Source of the DNA: a virus
Virus record (IMG/VR): IMGVR_UViG_3300017746_000077
Span: 1 to 31,136 of that record
Length of the DNA: 31,136 nucleotides
Strand: one strand, 5' to 3'
The translations under genes and the position numbers were made by a program. The notes under the pieces were generated by a model. It searched no databases. It had not been told where the DNA came from and saw only the letters and a list, made by a program, of their open reading frames with translations. Shown here piece by piece: positions 4,418-28,731 of the stretch. Each line of letters begins with the position of its first letter. Positions within the stretch are counted from its first letter, which is position 1.

Positions 4418-4427
4418 TATATAACGT
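4418..4427 (-). promoter_or_regulatory. Late promoter-like motif ACGTTATATA (minus-strand reading), copy 1
   Basis: Exact 10-mer, 3 nt upstream of ATG 4414. Follows terminator 4450-4476. Confidence 0.6.
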
Positions 4428-4449
4428 AATTAAAGTACGATTTTAGTAT

Positions 4450-4476
4450 AAAAAAAAAGGTGCTATTTCTAACACC
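4450..4476 (-). terminator. Intrinsic terminator
   Basis: Minus-strand RNA GGUGUU-AGAAAU-AGCACC followed by U9. Confidence 0.6.
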
Positions 4477-4505
4477 CTTTTTCCACTAAAAACAAAACAA
4501 AATTA

Positions 4506-4619
4506 TTAATCTATATATTCGCATTGATGACTACAATACCCCTCCTTATAAATTGGTCTTTCACATTCAATACATTTGTATTGTGGCATATCGTCTGGTG
4601 TTTCTGTATAGTAGTTCAT
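4506..4619 (-). CDS. 37-aa zinc-ribbon miniprotein (CxxC...CxxxC)
   Basis: Manual translation gives MNYYTETPDDMPQYKCIECERPIYKEGYCSHQCEYID. ATGA overlap with the upstream stop. Followed by terminator 4450-4476. Confidence 0.5.
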   Translation of the reverse strand: MNYYTETPDDMPQYKCIECERPIYKEGYCSHQCEYID

Positions 4620-4891
4620 AAATTATAAGCTCTCATTTCTTCTTTGTATAATTCTAAATCGTATAGGGCTTCATTCATTCGTTCCCTGTAATCGCTATTA
4701 GCCATTTTACAAGCCGTTAAATCGTTTTGTAATCCTGCAACATAAATCGAGTTGTCTATAAATAGTTGTTGGAATTGTAATAGTTCTTTGTTCTTTGGTT
4801 TAGCTTTTACCCACTTGTTAATTAGTTCGCCAAGTATTATAGCGTTACTGGTATATTCTAAATCTTGTAAGTTCTGTATCTTGTTTCTCAT
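4616..4891 (-). CDS. Hypothetical protein (91 aa from the coupled ATG)
   Basis: The ORF track gives 4616..4948. An internal ATG at 4891 forms an ATGA overlap with the upstream stop (4888-4890), so I prefer it as the start (MRNKIQNLQDLEY...). Confidence 0.55.
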   Translation of the reverse strand: MRNKIQNLQDLEYTSNAIILGELINKWVKAKPKNKELLQFQQLFIDNSIYVAGLQNDLTACKMANSDYRERMNEALYDLELYKEEMRAYNL

Positions 4892-5061
4892 ACTATTGTT
4901 TCTAACAAATGTAAGAAAAAAAACATAGCTACATAAAAGATTGCCCATCCTAAAGCTGCATAACCTACAATTTTTAAAAATGATTCTTTGTTTTCTTTTG
5001 GAGATATTTTCTTTGCAATGTAATATCTACGCTGTCCGTTTACTTCGTAATAATGTTTCAT
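4888..5061 (-). CDS. 57-aa single-pass membrane miniprotein
   Basis: The track ORF 4888..5100 begins at a TTG. An ATG at 5061 forms an ATGA overlap with the upstream mini-ORF. Hydrophobic segment IVGYAALGWAIFYVAMFFFLHLL. Confidence 0.5.
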   Translation of the reverse strand: MKHYYEVNGQRRYYIAKKISPKENKESFLKIVGYAALGWAIFYVAMFFFLHLLETIV

Positions 5062-5192
5062 ACTAATTTTAGTGTTAAAGAAATTATACCTGCAGTCCAA
5101 GCTATTAAAAGTAATATGCCTATGATTTTCATTGAGTCATTTTCTTTTTTTGGACTTCTACCTTGATTACTTCTATATTGTCTTTTTTTCAT
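5058..5192 (-). CDS. 44-aa membrane miniprotein with a basic N-terminus
   Basis: Manual translation gives MKKRQYRSNQGRSPKKENDSMKIIGILLLIAWTAGIISLTLKLV. Tightly packed with its neighbours. Confidence 0.45.
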   Translation of the reverse strand: MKKRQYRSNQGRSPKKENDSMKIIGILLLIAWTAGIISLTLKLV

Positions 5193-5193
5193 A

Positions 5194-5355
5194 TTATGAA
5201 TGTTGGTATCTGAAATTACAGATGTTTTTATAAGATTTTACAACCCACTCTTTCTGATAGGGTTTTAAGTTTTCTGTAGTCAATAACATTTTTAATGTTG
5301 ATTCTACGTCTATAAGTTTTGAGTTGTCCTCAAATGTTAATTTATTTATTGCCAT
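5194..5355 (-). CDS. 53-aa hypothetical protein
   Basis: Manual translation gives MAINKLTFEDNSKLIDVESTLKMLLTTENLKPYQKEWVVKSYKNICNFRYQHS. It fills the gap between neighbouring ORFs. Confidence 0.4.
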   Translation of the reverse strand: MAINKLTFEDNSKLIDVESTLKMLLTTENLKPYQKEWVVKSYKNICNFRYQHS

Positions 5356-5359
5356 ATTA

Positions 5360-5722
5360 TTATAGTAATTTTTTTAATTGATTTTCTCTTTTGGCAATCG
5401 AATCTTTTAATATTTTTATAAAATCTCTTTGCCATTGATTATCGTCTCTTATTGAAGAAATATCGTTTTCAATTTCTAATTGAGCAGAAGTTTTTTCTCT
5501 AATTATTTTATTAGATTTTTCCCAAGATAAATCCCAGCCTAAACCTTCTATTGCTTTAAGATTATGTTTAATCTCTTGTTTTGCTTCATTAAGATTTCTT
5601 TTATCATCAATAATATTATTAATTAAATTATTAATAGTTAAAAGCCTTTTACTAATTTTAGTTTCTTTGTGAAGATTATCAATTTCTGATTCTCTTAAAC
5701 TTAATGTAATCGTATTATCCAT
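5360..5722 (-). CDS. Coiled-coil hypothetical protein
   Basis: 120-aa ORF rich in heptad-like K/E/L/I. Preceded by the duplicated regulatory region 5723-5814. Confidence 0.6.
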   Translation of the reverse strand: MDNTITLSLRESEIDNLHKETKISKRLLTINNLINNIIDDKRNLNEAKQEIKHNLKAIEGLGWDLSWEKSNKIIREKTSAQLEIENDISSIRDDNQWQRDFIKILKDSIAKRENQLKKLL

Positions 5723-5814
5723 TTGTTTTGTTTTGTTTATATAACTGCTTTATTGCAATTATGTAGCTAATATACAATTCTTTTTAATATAATAAACAAA
5801 AAAGTTAATAAAGT
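5723..5814 (-). promoter_or_regulatory. Duplicated ~90-bp intergenic regulatory region, copy A
   Basis: Aligns with 9646-9731. Shared core is AATTAT(G/A)TAGCTAATATA(C/T)AA (5757-5777 versus 9679-9699), plus the 22-mer motif and an AAACAAAACAAAA leader. Confidence 0.6.
5791..5811 (-). promoter_or_regulatory. Early promoter/operator-like motif, variant TTATTAACTTTTTTGTTTATT
   Basis: Directly after stop 5815 and upstream of the 120-aa gene. Part of the duplicated region 5723-5814. Confidence 0.4.
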
Positions 5815-5916
5815 TTATTCAAACTCTAATATATCGCACTTACTACAGTAGTAGTAGTCTTTATTGTCTTTACCTGAATATATAGTCATTGTCTGTTTGC
5901 ATTTTTTACATTCCAT
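5815..5916 (-). CDS. 33-aa zinc-ribbon miniprotein (CxxC...CxxC)
   Basis: Manual translation gives MECKKCKQTMTIYSGKDNKDYYYCSKCDILEFE. TAATG overlap with the terL stop. Confidence 0.5.
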   Translation of the reverse strand: MECKKCKQTMTIYSGKDNKDYYYCSKCDILEFE

Positions 5917-7118
5917 TATTGTATATAGTATTTGCCCCTGTTAGGATTTTGTAGCTGGTAACTTACTGCATATCTAATTGCATCTAAACAATGATTCCAT
6001 TTGTCTATTGGTGTTTTAGATTTCTTCTCAAGCCAACTGTAGTTGTTAAGTTCTTTTATTAAATTAATACTTTGTTCGTCTACTATTAAATCATAGTCCT
6101 GTAATAATGATATTCCATAAGTAATAGAACCAGCTCCTTTAATTGAAGCTACTATATTACATTTCTGTTTTAATTCATAGATTAATCTTTTTTCTGCAGA
6201 ATCGCCTACTATTAGATTGTCTACTGCGTGTTTCATATTTAAACGTGCTATTTCGCTTGTTGTTAGTTTAGGCAAGTAAAAACATTCTTTTAAATAAATA
6301 ATCTTATTAGCAGTATCTATATTAGTTTCTATTAATGTGTTTGGGTCATTCATTCCAAAGTCTTGACCAAAAACGCTTATACCTACTTTTTTAAATTCTC
6401 CTATTGACCAGTTGGTAAATATTACGCCTTCTGCTTTATTTAACCAGCCACCAAGCATTTGATGTTTATACTTTTGTGGTCTACGTTTCTTTATGTTGTC
6501 TATTTGGTTTATGTAACTTTCTGAAAGGTTTTCAAGATTGTCTAAATAGGTTGTATGTATATAGGTAACGTTATCTTTTGAAGTGTTTACACTTTCTTGC
6601 ACTCCTTTATCTTCAAAGAATCTTTTATATATCCAATGTTCTTTAGTTGTAGGATTTAGTATTAGTATAACTCTATTTTGTTTGCCTTGTTGTCTTACTG
6701 ATAAATCAATCTTGTCAAATGTATCTTCATTAGTAAGTTCTTCTGCTTCATCTAATACAAAGGTTGTAACGCCTTGTAATGACTTTAGATTAGCCGTCTG
6801 GTCTCCACTTGATGTTTTGATACCCTTGAATATTATCTTGCTCCCAGAACGCTTATTTCTTATTTCATCTTTTGTGATATGAAAGTCATCAAACTTTTTA
6901 AGTAGTTCGAGCTTCTCAATAAATTCAGGAATAATAGAAATATAAGTAGAAGATAAAGTGTAACGAGTAAACAGAATAGTATGTCCAGCTTCATAAGTTA
7001 AAAGAACTAATAAGAGGTTTATAGAAAATGATTTACCAGAACCACGCCCTCCAGTTACTATAAAGTATCTCCCATCTGATTCTGCAATAGGCGAATACTT
7101 TTTATTTATCTTAATCAC
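5916..7118 (-). CDS. terL: Terminase large subunit (PBSX / Terminase_3-like)
   Basis: Walker A is VTGGRGSGKSF and Walker B is FVLDEAEE, with a C-terminal nuclease-like half. The start codon is GTG, in a GTGA overlap with the terS-like stop. Confidence 0.9.
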   Translation of the reverse strand: MIKINKKYSPIAESDGRYFIVTGGRGSGKSFSINLLLVLLTYEAGHTILFTRYTLSSTYISIIPEFIEKLELLKKFDDFHITKDEIRNKRSGSKIIFKGIKTSSGDQTANLKSLQGVTTFVLDEAEELTNEDTFDKIDLSVRQQGKQNRVILILNPTTKEHWIYKRFFEDKGVQESVNTSKDNVTYIHTTYLDNLENLSESYINQIDNIKKRRPQKYKHQMLGGWLNKAEGVIFTNWSIGEFKKVGISVFGQDFGMNDPNTLIETNIDTANKIIYLKECFYLPKLTTSEIARLNMKHAVDNLIVGDSAEKRLIYELKQKCNIVASIKGAGSITYGISLLQDYDLIVDEQSINLIKELNNYSWLEKKSKTPIDKWNHCLDAIRYAVSYQLQNPNRGKYYIQ

Positions 7119-7381
7119 TTAAACTTAATTAAGTCTTTAAAGTTTATATTAAAGCCATCACTTGATGATATGTCTACTGATTCTTTAGGTTTGCCATATC
7201 TATAACCAAAGTATAAGTTCATAGCTCTTGAATCTCCTTTTAGTATTTGTTTGCCTAAAGTTTTTATTACTTCGTCATTGTCTATTAAGGCATCTAATTT
7301 TTCAATTAGTTTTAGTTCGTCTGCTTTCTTTGGTCTACCTGCACCTTCTCTTGCTCCACCATTGTTTTTTCTATTATCCAT
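7115..7381 (-). CDS. terS: Terminase small subunit-like DNA-binding protein
   Basis: 88 aa with an N-terminal GGAREGAGRPKK motif typical of small phage packaging and HTH proteins. Directly coupled to terL. Confidence 0.55.
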   Translation of the reverse strand: MDNRKNNGGAREGAGRPKKADELKLIEKLDALIDNDEVIKTLGKQILKGDSRAMNLYFGYRYGKPKESVDISSSDGFNINFKDLIKFK

Positions 7382-7391
7382 AATATGTTTT

Positions 7392-7526
7392 TTAAATTGT
7401 TCTAAAGCGTCTTTGCTTATTCCATTTAATACTCCTACAATCTCCTAATATATTTAATCTTGAAACCTTATTATTAAAGTTGTTTCTTTCTTCATTAAGT
7501 TGACTGTTTCCATTTTTAGAATCCAT
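7392..7526 (-). CDS. 44-aa basic hypothetical protein
   Basis: Manual translation gives MDSKNGNSQLNEERNNFNNKVSRLNILGDCRSIKWNKQRRFRTI. It is the first ATG downstream of the promoter-like motif at 7557-7566. Confidence 0.3.
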   Translation of the reverse strand: MDSKNGNSQLNEERNNFNNKVSRLNILGDCRSIKWNKQRRFRTI

Positions 7527-7556
7527 ATTGAAATATTATTGTTTATTCAATCTATA

Positions 7557-7566
7557 TATATAACGT
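7557..7566 (-). promoter_or_regulatory. Late promoter-like motif ACGTTATATA, copy 2
   Basis: Exact 10-mer in the gap upstream of the terS/terL block, 30 nt from ATG 7526. Confidence 0.55.
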
Positions 7567-7581
7567 AATTTTTAGCTTAAT

Positions 7582-7917
7582 TTATTCAGTACCAGATATT
7601 ATATCTTTTTTTGGTCTGTCTTGTAGAATACTAAAGCCTAATAATAAATAGTTAATAGCATCTGCATATCTACTTTCTATTGGTTCTGCTTGTGGCATAT
7701 AAGGGTCTCCTGCGTGTGTTAAGATTGCTTGTATGTGTTTATTAAAAAATACAGCCCAAACTTCCATAGGTTCAATGCCTATGCTTTCTGCTGTAGATTT
7801 AAAGTTGTTTAGAATGTCTATATTCTTTTGTGTGTATTCTGGTTGTTTAGCTTCCATTATCTCTTGACATTTATCAAGTAGATATTTTTTAGTTTCTTTA
7901 AATTCCTGTTGGTTCAT
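7582..7917 (-). CDS. All-alpha protein, DUF1599 / MazG-like (tentative)
   Basis: 111 aa. The pattern KQPEY..NF....G......W..F.NKH resembles small all-alpha NTP-pyrophosphohydrolase-like phage proteins. Recognised from memory only. Confidence 0.3.
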   Translation of the reverse strand: MNQQEFKETKKYLLDKCQEIMEAKQPEYTQKNIDILNNFKSTAESIGIEPMEVWAVFFNKHIQAILTHAGDPYMPQAEPIESRYADAINYLLLGFSILQDRPKKDIISGTE

Positions 7918-8116
7918 AATTCTGTATTGCTTTTTTTATGTATTCGTATAACTCTAATGTTGATAGGGCTTCGTTTAAGTGTAGTTCTATAGTTTCAAAA
8001 TCTATATTATTGTCTTTTTCTACATCAGATTCTATTTCTCTTATGAATCTTTTTTGTTCCCATATTTTTGATTGCACTTTTAGTAGTGCTTTATCTTTTA
8101 GTTTATTCTCCTGCAT
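7898..8116 (-). CDS. Hypothetical protein
   Basis: 72-aa ORF with an ATG start. Overlaps both neighbours, consistent with coupling. Confidence 0.5.
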   Translation of the reverse strand: MQENKLKDKALLKVQSKIWEQKRFIREIESDVEKDNNIDFETIELHLNEALSTLELYEYIKKAIQNYEPTGI

Positions 8117-8639
8117 AAGCTGTTGTGCTATCTCTATATTGCCATTCCCATCCTTTTATAAGTAGTTCTATTCTTGTTAATGCTTCTCCTTCTAAATGTT
8201 TAGGTATTTGATTTACTAACTTATATAATGGTGTTTCGTTTTTTAATCTATGTATTTCTTCTTCAAGTTCTTTACATTTTACTTCTAAATAGTTTTCTCT
8301 ATTTATTCCTTTTAGATTCATACTTGTTTTAAGTACAATCATTCCTTCTATTTCTTGAATCTTTTTATTTGTTGATTTGTATATCTCATAGTTTTTCAAT
8401 GAGTGCATTACTGTTGCGTGATTAATAGGTGTTCCTGAATCCTCAAAGTATCTTGATATTTCAGTCCATCCCATATTTACTTTTTCTCTTAATATGTAGA
8501 AGAATAATCCTCGCATTTCTACTACTTCTCTTTTTCTTGTTTTTTCAAATATGTTTATTCCTGATAACTGTATTACTTTTTGAGCTATTTCATTTTGCAC
8601 ATTCCAATCATTATCCAATTCTATTATTTTTTTATTCAT
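8103..8639 (-). CDS. DnaA C-terminal (domain IV)-like helix-turn-helix protein
   Basis: EVVEMRGLFFYILREKVNMGWTEISRYFEDSGTPINHATVMHSLKNYE matches the Bac_DnaA_C pattern (R..a.yL.re.t..S...Ig..f...dHsTV.ha). Confidence 0.6.
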   Translation of the reverse strand: MNKKIIELDNDWNVQNEIAQKVIQLSGINIFEKTRKREVVEMRGLFFYILREKVNMGWTEISRYFEDSGTPINHATVMHSLKNYEIYKSTNKKIQEIEGMIVLKTSMNLKGINRENYLEVKCKELEEEIHRLKNETPLYKLVNQIPKHLEGEALTRIELLIKGWEWQYRDSTTAYAGE

Positions 8640-9345
8640 TTCTTAATTTTAAAAGGTTATAACATTCTGCGTATTTCTGTCTTGCCTTACCTTTGTATTG
8701 TTCTTTAAATAGTTCGTATAGTTTTTTTGTGTATTGATATTTGGTTTTACAATCTGCATAATATCTTTCAGCAAACTTTTTACCTTTACCTTTAAAGTAG
8801 TTTACATTGTCTGCTGTATCTCCTACTATCATCTGTTCATAGAAGTTATACAATGCTTCTTGTTCGCTTATGTCTAATACCTTTCTTGTTTTATAATGAT
8901 AGTTATACATTAAGCAAGGGAATTGTTTGTAGTCCTTGTCTATACTTACAATCATTACATTATCCCTTCCAAATTCATTTGATAGTGTTTGCCAGTATTT
9001 AGCTACTAAATCGTCTGTTTCTAATCCATATACAAATTTGCTTTCAAAAGTATCTTTAACGTATTGGTGCATATCGTGAAGAAGTGGAGGTAATTCTTGC
9101 TTCTTTCTGTTTGCTTTATATACTGGTGTTAGTATTTTTCTAAAGTTTCCTTTGCTTCCGTTAAATGTAATTACTTTTTCTATTTCGTAATCTTCTTCTA
9201 AATCGTTTACAATTTTCATATATTGTTCATCGAATTTAGCAATAGAATCTTCTATGTCTCTATAGTAAGGGTCTTGGTTTTCTTCGTCTTTTGTTCTGTA
9301 GCAACTTGCGAAGATTAAGCTGTCTGCGTCTATGAGTAATATCAT
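8632..9345 (-). CDS. 5'-3' exonuclease / flap endonuclease (T4 RNase H-like, PIN-like fold)
   Basis: N-terminal MILLIDADSLIF, then SIDKDYKQ and GDTADNVNYFKGKGKKFA. These correspond to the conserved acidic clusters and H3TH segment of the FEN family. Confidence 0.8.
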   Translation of the reverse strand: MILLIDADSLIFASCYRTKDEENQDPYYRDIEDSIAKFDEQYMKIVNDLEEDYEIEKVITFNGSKGNFRKILTPVYKANRKKQELPPLLHDMHQYVKDTFESKFVYGLETDDLVAKYWQTLSNEFGRDNVMIVSIDKDYKQFPCLMYNYHYKTRKVLDISEQEALYNFYEQMIVGDTADNVNYFKGKGKKFAERYYADCKTKYQYTKKLYELFKEQYKGKARQKYAECYNLLKLRNE

Positions 9346-9369
9346 TCTATAAAAGTAATCAAAATTGGT

Positions 9370-9391
9370 TTATAAACAAAATGTTTAATAA
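9370..9391 (-). promoter_or_regulatory. Early promoter/operator-like 22-mer TTATTAAACATTTTGTTTATAA
   Basis: Lies between terminator 9399-9425 and the FEN start at 9345. Near-palindromic. Confidence 0.5.
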
Positions 9392-9398
9392 TCTAATT

Positions 9399-9425
9399 AA
9401 AAAAAAAGGGAGGTTTTACCCTCCC
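9399..9425 (-). terminator. Intrinsic terminator
   Basis: GGGAGG-GUAAAA-CCUCCC followed by U9. Confidence 0.8.
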
Positions 9426-9432
9426 ATTGTTA

Positions 9433-10341: not shown

Positions 10342-10481
10342 CTTTTAATTTTTATCTCATTGAATTTTTTTCTCCTTTTATCACATCCACAATCTGTTCC
10401 AGTCTTTTTTGAATACCAATCTACAAGCCATTTAATGCCTGTATATTTTGTGAAGTAAAATATCAAGTCTCCTAATCTCAT
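10335..10481 (-). CDS. 48-aa hypothetical miniprotein
   Basis: Manual translation gives MRLGDLIFYFTKYTGIKWLVDWYSKKTGTDCGCDKRRKKFNEIKIKRW. ATGA overlap with the upstream stop. Confidence 0.45.
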   Translation of the reverse strand: MRLGDLIFYFTKYTGIKWLVDWYSKKTGTDCGCDKRRKKFNEIKIKRW

Positions 10482-10984
10482 ATTAATTCGTTTATATTAT
10501 TTAATTGATTGTTTTTAATGAAATAACCATTTGTTTTTAATTTGAAATTTGTTCCATTATTTCTTTTTCTTAAAGTACCTTTTTTTAAAAATTCTGATTT
10601 TTGTAATAATTCATCTTTTGTAACCCAGCCACATATTTCTAAAACATTGTTTTTTTTGTTCAATGAATTAAATATATATATTTCGCAATCAAATTTATCT
10701 TGAAAGGCTATCAAATGGTGTACATATTCATCCTTCATAAATACATTTCTACCCATAGTTTTTACATCAACTTTTTTATTCTTATACAAAAAATCAAATC
10801 CTCCATCAAATCCATTAGTAAACTTATGTTTTACATTAAATACTTCTTTAGTCAAAACTTCTCCTAATAACCCTACTAATTGGTTTTCTTTATTTCCATT
10901 AGCAGAATGTCTGTTACCCATATTATTATTTTGCAAATAATTCCAACATTTTAATTTTAGTTCTTTTGGTATGTCTATTGTCAT
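10478..10984 (-). CDS. PD-(D/E)XK-fold nuclease-like protein
   Basis: GLLGEV...GFDGGFDFLY.NKKVDVKT fits an E...D...(D/E)xK arrangement. ATGA coupling to the sigma gene. Confidence 0.4.
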   Translation of the reverse strand: MTIDIPKELKLKCWNYLQNNNMGNRHSANGNKENQLVGLLGEVLTKEVFNVKHKFTNGFDGGFDFLYKNKKVDVKTMGRNVFMKDEYVHHLIAFQDKFDCEIYIFNSLNKKNNVLEICGWVTKDELLQKSEFLKKGTLRKRNNGTNFKLKTNGYFIKNNQLNNINELI

Positions 10985-11460
10985 AATAATTTTTTTAGTT
11001 TCTCTTTTACTTTTTTATAAGTGTTGTAAAGTGAATAGTAAGGTATGCCAGACTTTCGTGATAGTTGTGCAATACTTTCTCCACCTTCTATTATTTCAAA
11101 TATCTTTTTATCATACCAATACATATTGTTTAGTTCGTTTTGTATTGTAGCATATACATCTTCATAGTTAGCACAATCAAAGTCTGCTAAAAAATCCCTC
11201 ATATTGTCTATAGATAATGTAGTCACTTTTGCTTCTTTACGTTTTAAATCCAAGAATAAAGATTTCAATGTTTTAAAAATATAGTAATAATTATAGTCAT
11301 CTCCAAAATCTATGTCTAAACCTTTGTTGATTCTTTTTTGAATCTTGATGTACATTTCTTGTGTTATATCTTCTGCAGTTTCTTTATTGCAGCCAAAGGA
11401 GCAAACAATGTCAATCCATACTTGATGTTTCTTATAGATTTCCGATAAGTAATTCTTCAT
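10981..11460 (-). CDS. ECF-like (group 4) sigma-70 family RNA polymerase sigma factor
   Basis: 159 aa. Region 2-like AEDITQEMYIKIQKRI...YYYIFKTLKSLFLDLKRKE and region 4-like HTH ESIAQLSRKSGIPYYSLYNTYKKVKEKLKKLL. No region 1 or 3. Confidence 0.7.
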   Translation of the reverse strand: MKNYLSEIYKKHQVWIDIVCSFGCNKETAEDITQEMYIKIQKRINKGLDIDFGDDYNYYYIFKTLKSLFLDLKRKEAKVTTLSIDNMRDFLADFDCANYEDVYATIQNELNNMYWYDKKIFEIIEGGESIAQLSRKSGIPYYSLYNTYKKVKEKLKKLL

Positions 11461-11463
11461 AAT

Positions 11464-12312: not shown

Positions 12313-12320
12313 AAATATAT

Positions 12321-12345: not shown

Positions 12346-12371
12346 TCTTAAAAAAAAATGTTTTTTAGTTC

Positions 12372-12665: not shown

Positions 12666-12668
12666 AAT

Positions 12669-13517: not shown

Positions 13518-13561
13518 TTTCTTGACAAAGACAAATGTACAGAACACTATAAATATATAAA

Positions 13562-13951
13562 TTAGTTTAAGTCGTTTATTAACAAGTTATATTTATTTAT
13601 TAACTCCTCTATTTCAGGTGTAGAGAATTTAGTTATTTGTTTTGCCTTATAATAAAGTGCTTCTGAACATCCAGCTCCATATTCTAAATCAAGATTTTTA
13701 CCAAAAATAAATTGTTCCCCATACTTAAATACATTGCAACCTGCGCATTGTACTTGACAGTTTATTTCATCCCATCTTGTTGAATAGTGTTTACGACTTT
13801 GGAAGTGTCCACATTGTAATTTTTTCCAATGATTTTTTTTGCCACAAGTAAAACATTGAGCTATTTCATTTTTAGCATATCTTTGTCTTATATATAAACT
13901 AAATACTTTGTCAAGTTTTTTTATAAGTTTACTTCTGCTTAATTTCTTCAT
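13562..13951 (-). CDS. ninG: NinG/Rap-like recombination endonuclease
   Basis: The cysteine pattern CFTCGK...CGHF..R......W...NCQVQCAGCN..K.G matches the lambda NinG family. Confidence 0.7.
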   Translation of the reverse strand: MKKLSRSKLIKKLDKVFSLYIRQRYAKNEIAQCFTCGKKNHWKKLQCGHFQSRKHYSTRWDEINCQVQCAGCNVFKYGEQFIFGKNLDLEYGAGCSEALYYKAKQITKFSTPEIEELINKYNLLINDLN

Positions 13952-14032
13952 TAGTTGGTATGACGTTATTACATTTTAAACACAAGTAATAATAACCATT
14001 TTGGTTGATTTATAAATATAACATTTTTATTT

Positions 14033-14123
14033 AACAAAAAAAACAATACAAAAAAAAAAAAAAGAAAAAAAAAAAAAAAGGACAAAAAGAAAAAGAAAGA
14101 AAAAAGCCTACAAAAAAGAAATA
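14033..14123. repeat. Polypurine (A-rich) low-complexity tract; polypyrimidine on the transcribed strand
   Basis: Read directly: A14 (14050-14063) and A15 (14065-14079) runs within ~90 nt made almost entirely of A and G. Non-coding in all frames. Confidence 0.9.
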
Positions 14124-14190
14124 ATTTTAATTACCTGTTCCAAGCACCATCCATCTTTATTAGGTTGTGCAAGTTTTGCTATAAGCCAGA

Positions 14191-14198
14191 CAAATATA
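14191..14198 (-). promoter_or_regulatory. TAnnTTTG-type (Bacteroidota sigma-A -7 box-like) element TATATTTG
   Basis: Exact match to the published Bacteroidetes -7 consensus, at the upstream edge of the 264-bp late/early intergenic region. No clear -33 TTG seen. Confidence 0.25.
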
Positions 14199-14215
14199 TA
14201 AAATATTATTTAATT

Positions 14216-15068: not shown

Positions 15069-15391
15069 TTTTCTAAATGTATTATATTAACTCTATCTTG
15101 TATTTCTTCTTTTGTTGCTTCTACTTTAAAACTTAAACCTGCCTTCCATTGACCACGAGGTTTACCGTTTTTGTCAAGTAAAATAATAGTAGGTACTGAT
15201 TTAATTTGTGCTTTCATAGAAGGAACTAAATCTTCTAATAAAGTCATTTTTACTTTACAATTCTTTATTCCTTTTAAATTATAATTATTTGATTGATTCC
15301 ATTTTGCGTTTATGTGCAGTAATATCAAATCTTGTGCATTACCTATTGAACATAATAACAAAACAAACAATACATATATTAAATGTTTCAT
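15065..15391 (-). CDS. Secreted thioredoxin-fold protein lacking the CxxC active site
   Basis: Signal peptide MKHLIYVLFVLLLCSIGNAQ. ILLHINAKWNQSNN sits where thioredoxins have F.A.WCxxC, and VPTIILLDKNGKP matches the cis-Pro loop region. Confidence 0.55.
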   Translation of the reverse strand: MKHLIYVLFVLLLCSIGNAQDLILLHINAKWNQSNNYNLKGIKNCKVKMTLLEDLVPSMKAQIKSVPTIILLDKNGKPRGQWKAGLSFKVEATKEEIQDRVNIIHLEK

Positions 15392-15696
15392 CTTCTGTAA
15401 ACTTTATTTTCTAAATCTTTAATTGATTCTTTATTTTCTTCAATATCCTCTTTCATATTTTCAGTAAGTTTATCAATTTGTATAACGTTATTTCTAATTA
15501 ATTCATCTTTTAATTGAAACTCCATCCTTTGTACAAATTCATCTCCACTAAATCCATCAATCTTATTATTTAATGTAGTTATTTCTCCTTGTAAAGTAAA
15601 CCACATACTCGCAAGTGATATTGTTCCTGCTATTATAATACCAATAGTTTTTAAATCTAATTGTACGTTTGTATCTTCACTAATCTTTGTTGCCAT
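15388..15696 (-). CDS. Type-II membrane coiled-coil protein (i-spanin-like)
   Basis: 102 aa with an N-terminal TM segment (IGIIIAGTISLASMWFTL) followed by a charged helical region. ATGA coupling to the next gene. Confidence 0.5.
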   Translation of the reverse strand: MATKISEDTNVQLDLKTIGIIIAGTISLASMWFTLQGEITTLNNKIDGFSGDEFVQRMEFQLKDELIRNNVIQIDKLTENMKEDIEENKESIKDLENKVYRR

Positions 15697-22388: not shown

Positions 22389-22394
22389 AGTTTT

Positions 22395-24434
22395 CTAATT
22401 TGGGTATGCTCCTCTATTTGGCATATTAATTGGTGCTATTTCTGATTGTTTAGTGCCTCTTGGATTTTTAATATACGTTTTAGGTATTGTTCTTGTTTTC
22501 TTATAATCGCTTAAATCTTTCGATGGTTTTGTGTTTTTCTTTAAACGGTATAATTGACGCATCCATTTATGTCTACAATATATTCCACCTTTAAATTTAA
22601 ATAAATCATAAGGTTTTTTGTTGTGTCCTAATTCTCTATTAACACCATCTCTTGACGCTTTATCAATATCTTCTAATCTATATACAATTCCTGATTTAGA
22701 TAAACGCATCATATTTTCGCAAAAATCTCTTGTAGAATTACTTGGTTTAGTAGAACCTACTGCATACTTATATCTAATTTTATAATTTTTAGAATCTAAA
22801 TAACTAAAGCCATCTGGTTTAGCACTTATTTCGTCTTTTAGTTGTTGAAATAAACTCTTTTTTTCATCAATACAAATGTTTGCCCAATCTTCATCACTAA
22901 TTTCAGAACCTTCTTGTAATTCATCTACAAGTTCCCATTCGTCATTTATTACTTCGCCTTTTAAGTTTTCTAAAATAACATCTGCTTGTTCACTTGACAT
23001 TTTAATAGGAATACAATTAGGAACTAAACGCCCTCCTTTTACTTTCATTCCGTATTGTTCGTAACCAGCTTCACAAGGTTTCTTTAAATCTATTTCATCG
23101 TGTGATTCGCAAGGCATATACCATACTTTATCTCCTTCTTTGTGTTCGTGATGACCAGAACATCCCATTTTTTTTGCTTGTTCTTCTGCTTCTTCTTTAG
23201 TTTCGTAAACTTCGTAACCGTCTACTTCTTTTAATTCAACAGACATTTTAACTCCTGTTTCTTCTTCTATATCTTCATCACTTTGTACGCTTCTGTCTAC
23301 GTCTGTAAATTCTAATGGCTGTAACGTAATAAAGTATAGGTTTAAGGCAATATTATTATAAGCTAATACATTATCAAAAGAATCTATTAAAAGCTCTTGA
23401 AATGGTCTTATAACGGTATTATCCATAAGCAAAGAAGCAGTCTTTATTTCATCTGCATTATTACCTAATCCTGTATTGTCTTTAATACCTAAAAGCATTG
23501 GGCTTACTACTCTATGAGCTACTAATACTTTACTTTGTGATTCGTCAGAAAGGAATTGATATTGATTATGTGCGTCTGATAATTGAACTGGTGTTATTTC
23601 AGCTTGTGCATCTTTATTGTCATTAAAACTTAAAATAAATTTACCTGCATTAGAACTACCTGAAAACTTTTGTGCAATTCTTGCTTCTATAAGTTCTCTT
23701 TCTTGTGGATTAGGTGTTCCATTATTGAAGTTAATTAACATTGAAGGACTTAATCCATTCATAATGTTGTTTAGGTGGTAATTAGATATTTCTTCTTCTA
23801 ATTCTGCGTATTGTATTCCACCTTGATAATCTACAGGTGCATAGTAATAAAAACCAGACTTGTATGGCTTTATGTAATATATTTCAATGTTTTCTTTTGA
23901 CATTCCATAAGCTGGTATTCTTAATGGCTTGTCGCTTGGTTTTAGTTTAGCCCAGTCTTTAAAATAATAGTAAGCAGGAATATCGCCATCTTCATTACAT
24001 TTTTCTGCTCTTAAAGTTTCTACTGGTATGTGTTCTATTTGTGCAATCTTTTTTCTGTCTTTAGAATATATTACTTGCATAGCACATTGACCCATAAGTT
24101 TTAGGTCATAACTTAATTTTCTAACTACATCTTTTTTTAGAAGTGTAATCATTTCAGCGTATTGTTCTGGCTTTCTATTTGAATCTGTAGCTCCTAAACC
24201 TTTACCGTAAATTTGTTGGCTAATACCATTAATACAGGCGTTGTTTGTAGGACTTCCATTGTATCTGTCTATTAAAAATTGGAAGTAATTGTTGTCGTCT
24301 CCATAAGCAATCCAATCTTGATTAGGAACTTCAATGATTTCAGGACTTGTGTAAGTGCTTAAATTAACAAAACTAACTTCTGATTTAGACCCTCTAACAA
24401 ATTGACCTAAACTATTTCTTTTTCTTTTTTTCAT
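22395..24434 (-). CDS. Portal protein fused to a C-terminal MuF / SPP1 gp7-like head-morphogenesis domain
   Basis: The first ~370 aa show a portal-family pattern (YYYAPVDYQGGIQYAELEEEISNYHLNNIMNGLSPSMLINFNNG...NAGKF...VAHRVVSPMLLG). The C-terminus has TRDFCENMMRLSKSGIVYRLEDI...GGIYCRHKW. An acidic linker and a Cys/His cluster lie between them. Confidence 0.8.
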   Translation of the reverse strand: MKKRKRNSLGQFVRGSKSEVSFVNLSTYTSPEIIEVPNQDWIAYGDDNNYFQFLIDRYNGSPTNNACINGISQQIYGKGLGATDSNRKPEQYAEMITLLKKDVVRKLSYDLKLMGQCAMQVIYSKDRKKIAQIEHIPVETLRAEKCNEDGDIPAYYYFKDWAKLKPSDKPLRIPAYGMSKENIEIYYIKPYKSGFYYYAPVDYQGGIQYAELEEEISNYHLNNIMNGLSPSMLINFNNGTPNPQERELIEARIAQKFSGSSNAGKFILSFNDNKDAQAEITPVQLSDAHNQYQFLSDESQSKVLVAHRVVSPMLLGIKDNTGLGNNADEIKTASLLMDNTVIRPFQELLIDSFDNVLAYNNIALNLYFITLQPLEFTDVDRSVQSDEDIEEETGVKMSVELKEVDGYEVYETKEEAEEQAKKMGCSGHHEHKEGDKVWYMPCESHDEIDLKKPCEAGYEQYGMKVKGGRLVPNCIPIKMSSEQADVILENLKGEVINDEWELVDELQEGSEISDEDWANICIDEKKSLFQQLKDEISAKPDGFSYLDSKNYKIRYKYAVGSTKPSNSTRDFCENMMRLSKSGIVYRLEDIDKASRDGVNRELGHNKKPYDLFKFKGGIYCRHKWMRQLYRLKKNTKPSKDLSDYKKTRTIPKTYIKNPRGTKQSEIAPINMPNRGAYPN

Positions 24435-24859
24435 ATTACAATGTAATCATTATTATAAGAATTATCTGTTATGTATTGACCTTGATTTATGTCATAATAT
24501 AAATTATCCATTTGGTCTATTTCTTGGTCAGTACAGAAAATCCTATCTTTAAATATATCTACAATGTCTGTTGTATCTACATTCCAAAACTCATTATATA
24601 ATTCCCATAAAAAATAATTAGTATTCCAAAAATTTGGGTCACTATATAATTCTATGTCGTAAAAATGACCTTCTACAAGTACAGGACTAAACGCTTGTGA
24701 AAATGTTAAATAATTTCCAGATGTTGTAGCATTAGAAACCTGATATGTTTGCTTTACATTTGTACTATCGTCTCTTATAGATAAAGTAAATTCGCTTCCG
24801 TAAACTCTTGGAATTACCTTAAAGTCTTGAGCCGATGTAATAGTCTTTAATACAATCAT
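24431..24859 (-). CDS. Hypothetical virion-module protein; first gene of a late operon
   Basis: 142-aa ORF. The ATG lies 4 nt downstream of motif 24864-24873. ATGA coupling to the portal. Confidence 0.6.
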   Translation of the reverse strand: MIVLKTITSAQDFKVIPRVYGSEFTLSIRDDSTNVKQTYQVSNATTSGNYLTFSQAFSPVLVEGHFYDIELYSDPNFWNTNYFLWELYNEFWNVDTTDIVDIFKDRIFCTDQEIDQMDNLYYDINQGQYITDNSYNNDYIVI

Positions 24860-24863
24860 TTTA

Positions 24864-24873
24864 TATATAACGT
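24864..24873 (-). promoter_or_regulatory. Late promoter-like motif ACGTTATATA, copy 3
   Basis: Exact 10-mer, 4 nt upstream of ATG 24859. Follows terminator 24907-24932. Confidence 0.6.
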
Positions 24874-24906
24874 AATAAATAACTTATTTTGTGAAAATGT
24901 TATTGC

Positions 24907-24932
24907 AAAAAAAAAGCACCCCATAGGATGCT
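24907..24932 (-). terminator. Intrinsic terminator after the 175-aa gene
   Basis: AGCAUCC-UAUG-GGGUGCU followed by U9. Confidence 0.75.
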
Positions 24933-24955
24933 CTTAATTTTAATATCAATAAATA

Positions 24956-25483
24956 TTAGTTAGGTACAATTTGTTCTGCGTCTGCAGTAATTAATCCTGA
25001 ATCTAAAAAGTAAGGAGCTAATTCTTCTTGACCTTCCATTACTAAAGTAAATCCTGATAAATCTCCTGCAGCAGCTCCAGAAACTACAGTTCCAGAAACA
25101 AACTCCATTCCGTTTTCAAGTCCACATAAGAATTGATTTCCGTAATAATCTTCAACAACTACATACGGTCTTGCAACTGCAATATCTTGTAATTCAGCTT
25201 GAGTTTTAGCATCAAGGTAAGTAAGTGTTAAATTTAATGTTTGAGTATAAAAAGTAGTTCCGTTTTCTCTTGAACTTGTTACAGTTGTTTCAAGTGATGA
25301 ATTTCCTTTTACGTCAAATTGATACCAGTCTGGTTGTGTTCCTGCGATAGTTGTTACTTGTTTTGTAGTAGAATCTACAGTTACACCAGTAATACCACCA
25401 AAATCTCCAAGCCAAACTGTTTTTATGCCACCAAAGGCACTTTTACAAGGTAATTTTCTACCTGTGTTTAATGTACAAGCCAT
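24956..25483 (-). CDS. Abundant structural protein candidate (major tail tube or capsid-decoration type)
   Basis: 175-aa beta-rich ORF bracketed by two intrinsic terminators, immediately after the capsid gene. The tube-like call is tentative. Confidence 0.4.
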   Translation of the reverse strand: MACTLNTGRKLPCKSAFGGIKTVWLGDFGGITGVTVDSTTKQVTTIAGTQPDWYQFDVKGNSSLETTVTSSRENGTTFYTQTLNLTLTYLDAKTQAELQDIAVARPYVVVEDYYGNQFLCGLENGMEFVSGTVVSGAAAGDLSGFTLVMEGQEELAPYFLDSGLITADAEQIVPN

Positions 25484-25502
25484 AGTTTATATTTTATTTT
25501 AT

Positions 25503-25537
25503 AAAAAAAGGGTAAGTAAGCATATACCCACCTACCC
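25503..25537 (-). terminator. Intrinsic terminator after the major capsid gene
   Basis: GGGUAGGU...ACUUACCC (8 bp, one G-U pair, 12-nt loop) followed by U7. Confidence 0.65.
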
Positions 25538-25561
25538 TTTATTTTTGGTTAATTTAATTTA

Positions 25562-26515
25562 TTAAGAATAAAGTACTATTTCAGACCCAATTCCGTATTG
25601 TACTCCAGCAGTAAATCTCATAATTACTCTTACGTTTTTACTTCCGTCTATGTCAGCCATATCAATTAGCTTAACAAGGTTGTAATCAGACATTAAGCCT
25701 GTTCCAAAGAATAAGTTAGATTTTTGTGCAGCCATTGCATAGTTGTTTGGTAAACCATTAGCAACAAAGATTTTTACACCATCAATAGAAAGGTTTTCGT
25801 TACCTCCATACCATAATGTTCCTCTATTGTCAATACCGTTTGCAACACCTCCACCATTAGCATCTGTAATAGCAGCATATCCACCTAAAGCTCTAACGTA
25901 TGCTTTAGCAATATTTTGTGAAACGTAAATGTGTAAATCATCTTTACCATATAATGTGCTTGGAATTGCATCAACAATTTTACCTAATTCAGCAACTACG
26001 TTACCAGAATTAACTCCACCACCTACAGCAGCAACGTCAATTACATCTGCATCTGCAGTAGCTAAAGTTGTAAATCCGTCAAATTCTCCAGCTTGCGCTC
26101 CACCAAGATTTCCTTGCCAGATATTGCTTTCAGTATTAGCAGATACTTGTTCTGCAACGTGAGCAATTAAAAAACTTGAAAAATCAGGAGGTAAATTATC
26201 AAAAGCAGAATATCCCATAGATACTGCACCCCAATCTGATTCAAATGGTGTTTTACATAATTCAAGATTTACTTGAAATTCTATTGGCTGGATAATTCTT
26301 TCTGTAAGTGTTACAGAACCAGCAGATGTGAAGTCACAAGAATCATCTGTAATTAAACCAGAAGTAACTACTTTTTTCATAACTTCTTTAAACTTAATGT
26401 TTGGCTTAATCTCGACAGCACCCTGACTTAATGTGTTACCACTCAATAGAGCAGCAGCGATGTACTTACCTGCAAATTCTCCAGCATAAGTAGTAGTAAT
26501 AGTTGGTTGTGGCAT
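25562..26515 (-). CDS. Major capsid protein (HK97-fold type)
   Basis: 317 aa. Preceded by protease and scaffold candidates and followed by a strong terminator. Sequence is typical of MCPs (TLTERIIQPIEFQVNLELCKTPFESDW...). Confidence 0.8.
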   Translation of the reverse strand: MPQPTITTTYAGEFAGKYIAAALLSGNTLSQGAVEIKPNIKFKEVMKKVVTSGLITDDSCDFTSAGSVTLTERIIQPIEFQVNLELCKTPFESDWGAVSMGYSAFDNLPPDFSSFLIAHVAEQVSANTESNIWQGNLGGAQAGEFDGFTTLATADADVIDVAAVGGGVNSGNVVAELGKIVDAIPSTLYGKDDLHIYVSQNIAKAYVRALGGYAAITDANGGGVANGIDNRGTLWYGGNENLSIDGVKIFVANGLPNNYAMAAQKSNLFFGTGLMSDYNLVKLIDMADIDGSKNVRVIMRFTAGVQYGIGSEIVLYS

Positions 26516-26526
26516 AATTTTTTATT

Positions 26527-27186
26527 TTATTTATTTAATTGATTTAATATATAGTCCATTGTAGAAGGGCGTCTGTTAGGAGCAATTCTAAAATTTTCCT
26601 TTTTTGCATTTCCAGCTTCTGGATTATGCTTGATTGGAGCAGCAGCAGGTTGTGATAATTCTTCCTTTAATTGCTCGTTTACTTCTTCGTTAAATTCTTC
26701 TTTAATTGTTCTGGATTTAGGTTGTCTTGAAACTTCTTCTTCCATTTCAACTTCTTTTTCTTCTTCCATATTGCTTTCTCCTACTTTAGATTTAAGGTCA
26801 GCAATGGCATCTTCAAGATTTTTAATTCTTTTTTCCATACCAGCCCAATCTTCAACGTCAGCTTCTTCTTCCATTTCTTCTTCTTCTTTTTCTAAATCTT
26901 CAGTTTCATCTTTAGATTCTTCTTCCTTTTGTGGAACTTCGTCAGATACTTCTCTAACGTCATCAATAATTCCTTCTTCTGCAACAACTACAAGTCTACC
27001 ATCTTCAAGCAGGTATTCTCCTACTGGCATAGCAACTTTTTCGTCATCTGTAAGAATGAATATCTCTTTACCTTTTTCAAACGATTCTGCTTCTACACGA
27101 GTGCCGTTCTCAAGTTTTTGTTCTTCAAGTTTAACTTCTATGTTTAGAAGCGTCTTGATTTGGTTTAACATTTCAGTTGATTTCAT
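26527..27186 (-). CDS. Scaffolding protein candidate (highly acidic)
   Basis: 219 aa with long E-rich helical tracts, immediately upstream of the MCP. The ATG lies 7 nt from motif 27194-27203. Confidence 0.5.
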   Translation of the reverse strand: MKSTEMLNQIKTLLNIEVKLEEQKLENGTRVEAESFEKGKEIFILTDDEKVAMPVGEYLLEDGRLVVVAEEGIIDDVREVSDEVPQKEEESKDETEDLEKEEEEMEEEADVEDWAGMEKRIKNLEDAIADLKSKVGESNMEEEKEVEMEEEVSRQPKSRTIKEEFNEEVNEQLKEELSQPAAAPIKHNPEAGNAKKENFRIAPNRRPSTMDYILNQLNK

Positions 27187-27193
27187 AATTATA

Positions 27194-27229
27194 TATATAA
27201 CGTGGTTAATTAATTTTTTTGCATTTTCA
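27194..27229 (-). promoter_or_regulatory. Late promoter-like motif, copy 4, with upstream AATGCAAAA element
   Basis: Minus strand reads AAATGCAAAAAAATTAATTAACCACGTTATATATATAATTATG. The 10-mer is at 27194-27203. Confidence 0.6.
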
Positions 27230-27376
27230 TATTGTTCTTGATATAACTCCTATGCCTTGCGCCCATAAAGAACCATCACAACATTTTCTTGAATAAGTAT
27301 TTTTGTCTTTACATAAACAAGCACGTCTTGAACTTTTAGGACTCGAATGACTTGGGAAAAATGTTTTTTTTGACAT
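27227..27376 (-). CDS. 49-aa basic cysteine-rich miniprotein
   Basis: Manual translation gives MSKKTFFPSHSSPKSSRRACLCKDKNTYSRKCCDGSLWAQGIGVISRTI (4 Cys). Confidence 0.4.
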   Translation of the reverse strand: MSKKTFFPSHSSPKSSRRACLCKDKNTYSRKCCDGSLWAQGIGVISRTI

Positions 27377-27389
27377 TTAATTATTTAAA

Positions 27390-27782
27390 TTATTTAGGCT
27401 CATTGTATAATCTTGGTAAATCCTTAACAAGACCATCTAATTTTCTTGACATATTATTTGCAGCTTTTAAGCCATCTACAGAATCAAAATCAACACCTAA
27501 ATCCATAGCAGCTTGATTAATGTCTGCAACATCATTTTCAAGTCTTTTTCTTTCATTTGCAACATCTTTTATTACACCTTGAAAATTTTGCCAAGCCTTT
27601 TTGTAAGACATAAATTGATTGTCAATTTTAGATTCAGCTTTACGCAATTTATCGTCAAGTTTATTTAAATCATTTAAAACTTTTGGTGCTTTACGAGCAA
27701 ACTCTACTTTTTCTAATTCAACTTTTTCTGATTTTAATTCAGTTTGAATCATACTGAATATTTTGTTTATATGCTTACTCAT
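27390..27782 (-). CDS. Helical protein, second scaffold-like candidate
   Basis: 130-aa coiled-coil-type ORF. Resembles the C-terminal extension of the upstream protease ORF. Confidence 0.5.
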   Translation of the reverse strand: MSKHINKIFSMIQTELKSEKVELEKVEFARKAPKVLNDLNKLDDKLRKAESKIDNQFMSYKKAWQNFQGVIKDVANERKRLENDVADINQAAMDLGVDFDSVDGLKAANNMSRKLDGLVKDLPRLYNEPK

Positions 27783-27796
27783 AGTTATATTTTAAT

Positions 27797-28693
27797 TTAT
27801 TGTACACTTCTAAAAACTGTTCTCATATCAGGAATGATACTTTCTAATTGCTTTACCCTAACATATTCTTTTATAGAATTTGGTTTGATACCTAAATCAT
27901 TAGCACTTTTTTCAATTCTTTTTAAAGTTTGTGCTATGTTTTGTTCTTCTTTGTTTAATAATTTTTCTGCTTCTGAACCTAAACTTCTTAATTTTGATTT
28001 TTCTTTTGATACTTCTTTAAAAGTTGGATTTAATTTTTTAGTAAAAACTTTTATTACTGCATCTAAATCATCTACTAAAGCAAGTTCTACTTTTTCGCCT
28101 TTGACTATTTTTTCTATTTGACTTAATAGTAAGTCTGCTTGTTTTTCTGACATATCTTCTTTTATTGATTCTTTAGGACGTTCCATTTTATCTGCAAAGT
28201 AGCCTTCTATTGAAAACCCTTTTACTTTACCTGTTTTTACATAGTCATTCCAGACTTCATCATTGTTGACTTTTACAGCTCCCATCCAAGTTCCTACAGG
28301 TACATTCATACCATACTTTCTGGACTTGTCGTGTACTTCATCTTCAACAAGCCAAGATTCTACTAAACTTAAACCACTCAATGAATGTTGGTGTTCTAAT
28401 GTTGAATTGTTTTGATTGCCTTTTGTCAAATACATTTGGGACGCTTTCAATACCGTATCTTTAGAGAAGTATATATAATATTCATCTTCTCCATTATTTC
28501 GATATATAGGCTTGTTTGGTATTAACAAAGCTCCCATTAATATCTTTTTTTCTTTATCTATTTCTGCAAGTTTAATTTCATTACTTTTTAAAGCAATAAA
28601 ATCTTCTTCTATGGCAGGATTTTCAACTATGGATATTGCTTCGATTCCAGAAGCATCTTGATTTTCGTCAAGTATCAATTCGACTATCTTCAT
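27797..28693 (-). CDS. Prohead protease, XkdF-like (Peptidase_S78_2-type) with a helical C-terminal extension
   Basis: ISIVENPAIEEDF...ILMGALLIPNKPIYR...YFSKDTVLKASQMYL...LEHQHS...GTWMGAVKV matches the XkdF domain pattern. The ATG lies 4 nt from motif 28698-28707. Confidence 0.65.
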   Translation of the reverse strand: MKIVELILDENQDASGIEAISIVENPAIEEDFIALKSNEIKLAEIDKEKKILMGALLIPNKPIYRNNGEDEYYIYFSKDTVLKASQMYLTKGNQNNSTLEHQHSLSGLSLVESWLVEDEVHDKSRKYGMNVPVGTWMGAVKVNNDEVWNDYVKTGKVKGFSIEGYFADKMERPKESIKEDMSEKQADLLLSQIEKIVKGEKVELALVDDLDAVIKVFTKKLNPTFKEVSKEKSKLRSLGSEAEKLLNKEEQNIAQTLKRIEKSANDLGIKPNSIKEYVRVKQLESIIPDMRTVFRSVQ

Positions 28694-28697
28694 ATTT

Positions 28698-28731
28698 TAT
28701 ATAACGTATTTAATTAAAAATTTTGCATTTA
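28698..28731 (-). promoter_or_regulatory. Late promoter-like motif, copy 5, with upstream AATGCAAAA element
   Basis: Minus strand reads AAATGCAAAATTTTTAATTAAATACGTTATATAAAATATG. The 10-mer is at 28698-28707. Confidence 0.6.

Follow-up and report, generated by a model that had tools for sequence, protein, structure and literature searches.

Phage-encoded sigma factors with cognate middle and late promoters are known from phiEco32 (gp36) and Salmonella phage 7-11 (gp47), in which a small sigma factor is encoded among the early/middle genes and a highly conserved motif recurs at the late genes in about five to eight copies per genome (PMC8948821). Related phages of this kind keep the promoter positions, and the consensus shifts as the sigma factor diverges; in phage 7-11, the promoters consist of two blocks, GTAAtg-N16-aCTA (PMC8948821). 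An arrangement resembling these is described here for an uncultured marine flavobacterial phage, nearly the whole genome of which is contained in a stretch of 31,136 nucleotides (nt), i.e., positions 1 to 31,136 of the IMG/VR virus record IMGVR_UViG_3300017746_000077 (the whole stretch is hereafter called the window). The 10-mer ACGTTATATA precedes late genes of this phage in five exact copies which, judged by their conservation in related phages, are a real, strongly conserved regulatory signal. In our preferred reading, to which we assign a probability of about 0.7, each of the five motifs is the -10 half of a late promoter that would be used by host core RNA polymerase together with a phage sigma factor of the extracytoplasmic function (ECF) type, encoded at 10981–11460.

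Both hallmarks of the phiEco32/7-11 type, a phage sigma gene and a conserved motif at equivalent late-gene positions in related phages, were found. Comparative sequence analysis suggests that the present case most likely works like these systems and represents a known phage strategy in a new, very widespread phage group. The hosts differ (Enterobacteria there, Bacteroidota here) and the motifs are unrelated in sequence. Moreover, transcription in phiEco32 and 7-11 starts 6–9 bp from the element and yields ordinary leaders, whereas a layout abutting the start codon is predicted here. This predicted leaderless layout in a Bacteroidota phage is the notable feature of the system.

The late promoters of phage T4, TATAAATA, are read by gp55, a sigma factor without region 4; they have no -35 block and need T4 gp33 and the sliding clamp. 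A short, invariant, A+T-rich -10-type element at the late genes and a small, divergent phage sigma factor are common to T4 and the window, whereas here the signal has two blocks and the sigma factor candidate has a region-4-like domain. Among cellular ECF promoters, the SigW consensus of Bacillus subtilis reads TGAAAC-N16-CGTATA. In flavobacteria, ECF promoters likewise carry a CGT box at -10 (PMC9723704). With such cellular promoters, including the flavobacterial motif SM6 (CGT box), the phage signal shares the CGT in the -10 element, an A-rich or AAC block 15–17 nt upstream and a pyrimidine-purine pair at the predicted start; it is, however, far more uniform than the motifs of cellular regulons. 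The literal motif was not found in any relevant paper of the literature searched.

Five motif copies and their conservation in related phages

ACGTTATATA occurs exactly five times in the window, always on the minus strand, on which all long open reading frames (ORFs) lie, and not once on the other strand. All copies are placed between ORFs and oriented with the genes. Their positions and the genes that follow them are:

P1 copy, 4418–4427, minus strand: ahead of a 216-amino-acid (aa) protein (phrog_32199, function unknown), which heads the neck/tail block
P2 copy, 7557–7566, minus strand: ahead of a 44-aa ORF, an 88-aa protein and the large terminase (Terminase_3, E 5e-36)
P3 copy, 24864–24873, minus strand: ahead of a 142-aa protein, the portal (phrog_33693, E 5e-102) and a 1545-aa tail fibre
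P4 copy, 27194–27203, minus strand: ahead of a 219-aa scaffold-like protein and a 317-aa capsid-like protein
P5 copy, 28698–28707, minus strand: ahead of a 298-aa S78-type prohead protease (Peptidase_S78_2, E 5e-14)

A first-pass annotation, made by a model from the letters and a list of their ORFs, had reported five exact intergenic copies in gene orientation, and our counts, coordinates and ORF gaps agree with it. It had also expected the 10-mer less than once per strand and proposed a shuffled-sequence test; in 100 dinucleotide-preserving shuffles of the window, the mean was 0.16 copies and the maximum two, with none reaching five. Two of its statements hold in part. The copy at 7557 had been placed ahead of terS-terL: the large terminase block does follow, but the first gene is a conserved 44-aa ORF (7392–7526) and not the 88-aa putative small terminase. 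Likewise, the claim that the motif marks every late operon is correct for the five blocks and may not be universal; a 175-aa gene between two terminators has no motif.

Allowing one mismatch added only three sites, which is not above chance: one within an ORF, one on the other strand and one (1410–1419) in an unannotated stretch. A one-mismatch copy on the gene strand, ACGTTATACA at 15479–15488 inside ORF 15388–15696, has neither an upstream A block nor a nearby start codon and is probably due to chance. None of the other CGTTA sites in the window has a context like that of the five copies.

The comparison with related phages covered about 1.6 Mb of viral contigs, comprising 80 loci centred on the sigma candidate (830 kb) and 80 centred on the capsid gene (788 kb). 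On the gene strand, the exact 10-mer was present 71 times in the former set and 63 times in the latter, in both cases with no copy on the other strand, and all 63 capsid-centred copies belong to 25 loci whose capsid is at least 81% identical. CGTTAT is part of all 134 copies and of all five window sites, and complete relatives carry the five sites found in the window. A scan of related phage genomes, as suggested in the first-pass annotation, thus finds the motif at equivalent gene positions with a strand bias of 134:0. When the 103 unique contexts were reduced to 28 with flanks less than 70% identical, the 10-mer was invariant in 28 of 28 despite the diverged flanks.

These 28 contexts define the full signal of the window clade as yAAA(A/T)T-N13-CGTTATATA, of which the motif is the -10 half. 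Counted from the C of CGT, the upstream block yAAA(A/T)T spans positions -19 to -14; positions -18, -17 and -16 are each A in 26 of 28 contexts, and TA at -2 and -1 stands out as well. Downstream, a T-A pair is conserved (T at +11 in 22 of 28, A at +12 in 26 of 28), and it is retained even where the A is not part of a start codon.

A candidate ECF-type sigma factor and its divergence across clades

The presumed reader of the motif is encoded inside the replication module:

10981–11460, minus strand: gene of a 159-aa ECF-type sigma factor, presumed motif reader, inside the replication (early/middle) module

Its predicted fold and its family profile identify the product as a two-domain sigma factor of the ECF type (group 4). 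An AlphaFold model built from 19 homologues (predicted local distance difference test score, pLDDT, 81.6) consists of two helical bundles joined by a low-confidence linker (residues 80–100). When it was compared with the PDB by Foldseek, ECF sigma factors (SigH, SigE, AlgU, SigL, RpoE, SigW, BldN, CnrH) made up nearly all of the 30 best hits, and these alignments cover essentially the full length (157–179 columns for the 159-aa query). A profile of 74 sequences retrieved only sigma factors from the PDB, e.g., region 2 of SigR (E 2e-4) and SigL over nearly the full length; among the 74 relatives themselves, 11 have a match to Sigma70_r2 and three to Sigma70_r4_2 (best E 5e-5). On the region-4 side, the window protein itself has only a weak HTH_psq match (residues 120–156). 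The candidate hence has, like cellular ECF sigma factors, the sigma-2 and sigma-4 domains by fold, lacks regions 1.1 and 3, and falls within the usual size of about 150–200 aa. In the cultured Nonlabens phage P12024S, the homologue gp33 exceeds the Pfam cut-off for Sigma70_r2 (25.2 bits against 24) and is so annotated in GenBank. Predicted fold, profile and this Pfam match agree with the first-pass annotation in regarding the product of 10981–11460 as a phage sigma factor.

The family comprises 961 clusters at 50% identity (E up to 0.001) in public data. Among cultured phages, tblastn with the sigma proteins of the window and of clade C (see below) found nothing, and a detectable homologue of gp33 was present only in the Nonlabens phages P12024S and P12024L. 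A genome scan gave no clear host sigma relative; homologues appeared only on short contigs of Bacteroidota metagenome bins and in a few archaeal bins, the latter being probably mis-binned. Unlike cellular ECF sigma factors, this one is carried by a phage, and the proteins neighbouring its gene showed no anti-sigma domain. The stop of the sigma gene is overlapped by 4 nt by a 168-aa ORF (10478–10984), which has a weak DUF6998 match only and no anti-sigma domain. It is probably translationally coupled to the sigma gene, and its product could be a sigma partner.

Motif and candidate were followed together into sister clades. A sub-clade with a capsid about 65% identical lacks the 10-mer and has, at the equivalent genes, T(G/A)AAAC-N15-CGTTATCA(T/A)A; its homologue of the sigma candidate (186 aa, about 34% identical) is encoded at the equivalent genome position. 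P12024S carries AAAAC-N16-17-CGTTAA-N6-ATG before seven late genes (gp01, 05, 08, 35, 41, 44 and 45), and the looser pattern AAACAA-N12-17-CGTTA has seven matches in its genome against 0.36 expected, six of them before genes; its gp33 (159 aa) is 27% identical to the window candidate. Two further clades have a -10 half without CGT, with AAACAAT ahead, at equivalent late-gene positions: TTAATTTTTAAAATAAAA in clade B (loci L116, L117, L130 and L152) and TTATTAATAT(A) in clade C (loci L158, L173, L188 and L199), the latter encoding a 180-aa sigma homologue about 30% identical. The two-block signal thus appears fixed in place relative to the genes, and clades with diverged sigma homologues (about 30–35% identical) differ in its -10 half, a correlation in which the sigma genes compared are those of the clades other than B (TTAATTTTTAAAATAAAA).

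The pairing of clade-specific -10 blocks with diverged sigma factors provides a natural series in which to trace how the specificity of ECF-type sigma factors evolves. For a large group of marine Bacteroidota phages not in culture, the comparison also supplies a specific map of late transcription that can be tested, and the cultured P12024S, which shares the layout, opens the model to tests at the bench. Among papers mentioning P12024S, none appears from its title and abstract to treat the promoters or the sigma factor of this phage; the text searched for "sigma" and "promoter" was that of Bartlau et al. (PMC8776804).

In the proposed mechanism, host sigma-A polymerase would transcribe the replication module, including the sigma gene, from promoters of the TAnnTTTG type near 14198 and 13539, TAnnTTTG being the consensus of the Bacteroidota -7 box (PMC9723704). 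The two boxes are:

14191–14198, minus strand: host-type -7 box TATATTTG, located in a gap of 264 nt ahead of the replication module and the sigma gene; a candidate early promoter
13532–13539, minus strand: TACATTTG, a further host-type -7 box between genes, likewise ahead of the replication module

The new phage sigma factor would then bring the polymerase to yAAA(A/T)T-N13-CGTTATATA, region 4 reading the A-rich upstream block and region 2 reading CGTT. Here, we infer the binding of the sigma factor to the motif, the transcript starts and the timing. Comparative genomics supports the corresponding model of the first-pass annotation.

Real late promoters could also be read by an ECF sigma factor of the host, or by host polymerase with another phage protein, the phage sigma-like protein having some other target. 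Flavobacteria do possess several ECF sigma factors with CGT-type -10 boxes (PMC9723704), and the link between the phage protein and the motif is a predicted one. However, the -10 block shifts between phage clades with diverged sigma homologues while the gene positions stay constant, a homologue is encoded at the equivalent genomic place in every clade examined, and phages 7-11 and phiEco32 provide a precedent for a phage factor (PMC8948821). We therefore regard reading by a host factor as unlikely.

Predicted start sites and alternative readings of the motif

Together with their upstream blocks, the five copies give the following predicted late promoters:

P1, 4414–4445, minus strand: TAAAAT (4445–4440) and CGTTATATA (4426–4418), predicted +1 at the A of the ATG at 4414
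P2, 7553–7584, minus strand: TAAATT and CGTTATATA (7565–7557), predicted +1 near 7553
P3, 24860–24891, minus strand: CAAAAT and CGTTATATA (24872–24864), ATG at 24859, 13 nt from the C of CGT
P4, 27190–27221, minus strand: CAAAAA and CGTTATATA (27202–27194), ATG at 27186, 16 nt from the C of CGT
P5, 28694–28725, minus strand: CAAAAT and CGTTATATA (28706–28698), ATG at 28693, 13 nt from the C of CGT

At P1 and P2, the distance from the C of CGT to the ATG is 12 and 39 nt, respectively. Measured from CGTTAT, the gap to the ATG is 6, 7, 7 and 10 nt at four sites, just as the 6–10 nt given by the first-pass annotation, and 33 nt at the terminase site. The same spacing prevails in the window clade: among 95 unique sites with a callable ORF, the first ORF-opening ATG lies 12 nt after the C of CGT in 19, 13 nt in 32, 14 nt in 3, 15 nt in 3 and 16 nt in 23, i.e., within 12–16 nt in 80 of 95 and at 12–13 nt in 51 of 95. 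Twelve of the remaining 15 sites are of the terminase type (39–42 nt). In the CGTTATCA clade, the distance is 12 nt at 14 of 17 sites. The annotated ATGs can be taken as the real starts, because protein conservation with synonymous changes begins there: MKANINVP (conserved in relatives from the P1 ATG), MELKLTIP and MEVKLTIP, as well as MKIVE, MKSTE and MIVLK across relatives.

By comparison with SigL and sigma-E of Escherichia coli, we take the base after CGT to be the flipped base of the -10 element. At ECF promoters, 10–11 nt separate the start site from the flipped -10 base, initiation favours a pyrimidine-purine pair, and leaderless transcripts begin with A (PMC7776599). The predicted start then falls 12 or 13 nt after the C of CGT, which is the site of the T-A pair and of most ATGs. 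In the proposed mechanism, transcription would start at the T-A pair conserved 12 nt downstream of the C of CGT. The A of this pair is the A of the ATG at P1; it precedes the ATG by 1 nt at P3 and P5 and by 4 nt at P4. The P1 message is accordingly predicted to be strictly leaderless, those of P3 and P5 to have a leader of 0–1 nt, that of P4 one of about 4 nt and that of P2 one of about 27 nt. By its spacing, the arrangement has "leaderless or nearly so" as its natural reading; this wording of the first-pass annotation, drawn from four of the copies, would fit P1 strictly and P3, P5 and P4 nearly. The first gene of the near-leaderless units would be translated without a ribosome-binding leader.

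The message of lambda cI from PRM is leaderless, and the middle/late genes in Thermus phage P23-45 are reportedly leaderless as well. Phage transcripts often lack a leader (PMC5312081). The window shares with such cases a promoter placed with its +1 at the A of the AUG, as predicted here; it differs in the scale of the prediction, which extends to the opening gene of most late operons throughout a phage lineage, and in a host phylum with only about 5.5% leaderless mRNAs, the value for Flavobacterium psychrophilum (PMC9723704). Bacteroidota also initiate without Shine-Dalgarno pairing (PMC9723704). Should the predicted starts be correct, leaderless messages would serve the translation of highly expressed structural genes in a phylum whose unusual mode of initiation is independent of Shine-Dalgarno pairing, which would be useful for understanding Bacteroidota translation and for building expression tools. 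A bolder and rather doubtful extension is that the whole globally distributed lineage of marine flavobacterial siphoviruses uses fused modules of promoter and start codon to express the opening gene of most late operons, giving truly leaderless mRNAs. Were this true, it would imply a phage-specific regime of late translation, e.g., preferential 70S initiation on a 5'-AUG, and a private sigma/promoter code co-diversifying clade by clade.

Three terminators bear on where these messages can begin:

4450–4477, minus strand: intrinsic terminator upstream of P1, hairpin 4477–4459 followed by a U-run (free energy -19.7 kcal/mol, z -5.3), ending the terminase unit
24903–24935, minus strand: intrinsic terminator upstream of P3, hairpin at 24935–24912
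25507–25540, minus strand: strong terminator after the capsid gene

The first two stand just upstream of motif copies, in accordance with the first-pass annotation, so that fresh initiation would be needed at P1 and P3. The 175-aa gene without a motif (24956–25483) lies between the strong terminators at 25540–25507 and 24935–24912. Homologues of its product (MACD...) lie behind a similar terminator in all clades, and the gene is presumably expressed by read-through of the capsid-gene terminator.

The tight distance of 12–16 nt to the ATG and the ten invariant positions would also fit a translation signal, particularly in a phylum without Shine-Dalgarno pairing (PMC9723704). The 10-mer could then act in RNA, as a short 5' leader element (a translation enhancer or processing site) of messages from a promoter farther upstream. 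We consider this improbable: the distance grows to 39–42 nt at terminase sites and to 24 nt at the scaffold site of the sister clade with CGTTATCA, a second conserved block lies at a fixed, promoter-like 15–17 nt upstream, and the terminators at P1 and P3 leave only about 25–30 nt for another promoter, in which there is no TAnnTTTG box. Folding of the motif with its downstream RNA gave no shared structure (z -1.9 to +1.1), and neither Rfam matches nor tRNA genes were found in the window.

With a similarly small probability, the 10-mer could be an operator for a phage DNA-binding activator or repressor of the late genes, e.g., the helix-turn-helix protein of the DnaA_C type encoded at 8103–8639. 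The window encodes other helix-turn-helix proteins, too, and late activators binding just upstream of terS, such as RinA, are known. However, the motif is asymmetric and strictly oriented (134:0), it belongs to the CGT type of ECF elements, and the ATG is placed as the start-site geometry of ECF promoters would have it; moreover, a promoter would still be required with an operator so near to the ATG, and there is no host-type one. A chance or compositional feature of A+T-rich intergenic DNA, which the 70% A+T content of the window and the TATATA of the 3' half of the motif might suggest, has a negligible probability and is excluded by the conservation data, given the shuffling result, the strand bias in relatives and a 10-mer invariant amid diverged flanks.

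Several points weigh against the reading of the motifs as promoters of a phage ECF-type sigma factor. Unlike in cellular ECF promoters, the -35 block of the window clade, AAA(A/T)T with its AAA 15 nt from CGT, lacks the C of the canonical AAC; the ECF layout proposed in the first-pass annotation, an A-rich element about 15 nt upstream of CGT, agrees with the window as to CGT and spacing, and AAC is present in the sister clades. In addition, this block is low in information (about 1 bit per position) in DNA of 72% A+T, and the ten invariant positions exceed the strict need of a -10 element. The spacer between the blocks varies by clade, with 15 nt in the window and CGTTATCA clades and 16–17 nt in P12024S. 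On the protein side, the window protein alone stays below the Pfam threshold for Sigma70_r2 (E 0.012), and its match to mycobacterial SigE has an E value of 0.5. The link between sigma divergence and motif divergence is drawn from four or five clades only and is not a proof. Finally, leaderless mRNAs are rare in flavobacterial hosts, so that the reading has to assume that very abundant structural proteins can be translated efficiently from leaderless messages.

Genome context and further observations

The window is closely related to a 32.6-kb IMG/VR contig (UViG_3300046750_000103) and distantly related to the Nonlabens (Persicivirga) phages P12024S and P12024L of the genus Inhavirus; in a blastn search against cultured phages, only an 82-nt portal match to the Nonlabens phages was found. 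By their positions, the five motifs split the region of packaging, tail, head and portal/fibre genes into five consecutive units. The protease motif is preceded in relatives, at a distance of about 7 kb, by the 216-aa gene with its motif; the unit starting at 4427 would consequently leave the window at its low end and resume at its high end, running through a 583-aa virion protein. The window ends comprise 1–1678 and 30481–31136, with no complete ORF listed at the low end. Synteny with locus L132 indicates that a long tail gene (in the tape-measure position) probably spans both ends, in which case the window would be close to one whole circularly permuted genome.

Replication and recombination genes occupy 14.2–7.6 kb, encoding a NinG/Rap nuclease, an AAA_25 ATPase, an exonuclease and a DnaA_C-type protein in addition to the sigma candidate; ACGTTATATA does not occur within this module. 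Sigma-70-type promoters were not enriched in a scan of the window (80 against an expected 93.9, and 67 against an expected 71.6), which is usual for a Bacteroidota system.

The conserved P2 leader at 7527–7556 on the minus strand, tatagattgaataaacaataatatttcaat (core GATTGAATAAACAATA in relatives), precedes the 44-aa ORF (MDSKN...). It contains AAACAAT, which resembles the upstream block of the sister-clade promoters.

The 264-nt gap at 13949–14215 (minus strand) contains, after TATATTTG, a pyrimidine tract of about 90–110 nt, nearly pure T with scattered C and G, and could be an origin or early control region. At the end of the replication module, about 0.5 kb upstream of P2, the 178-aa protein encoded at 8103–8639 has a C-terminal helix-turn-helix domain of DnaA (E 1e-8). 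The product of the portal gene (22395–24434) carries, beyond the portal fold, a C-terminal extension with a DUF3721 motif at residues 410–445.

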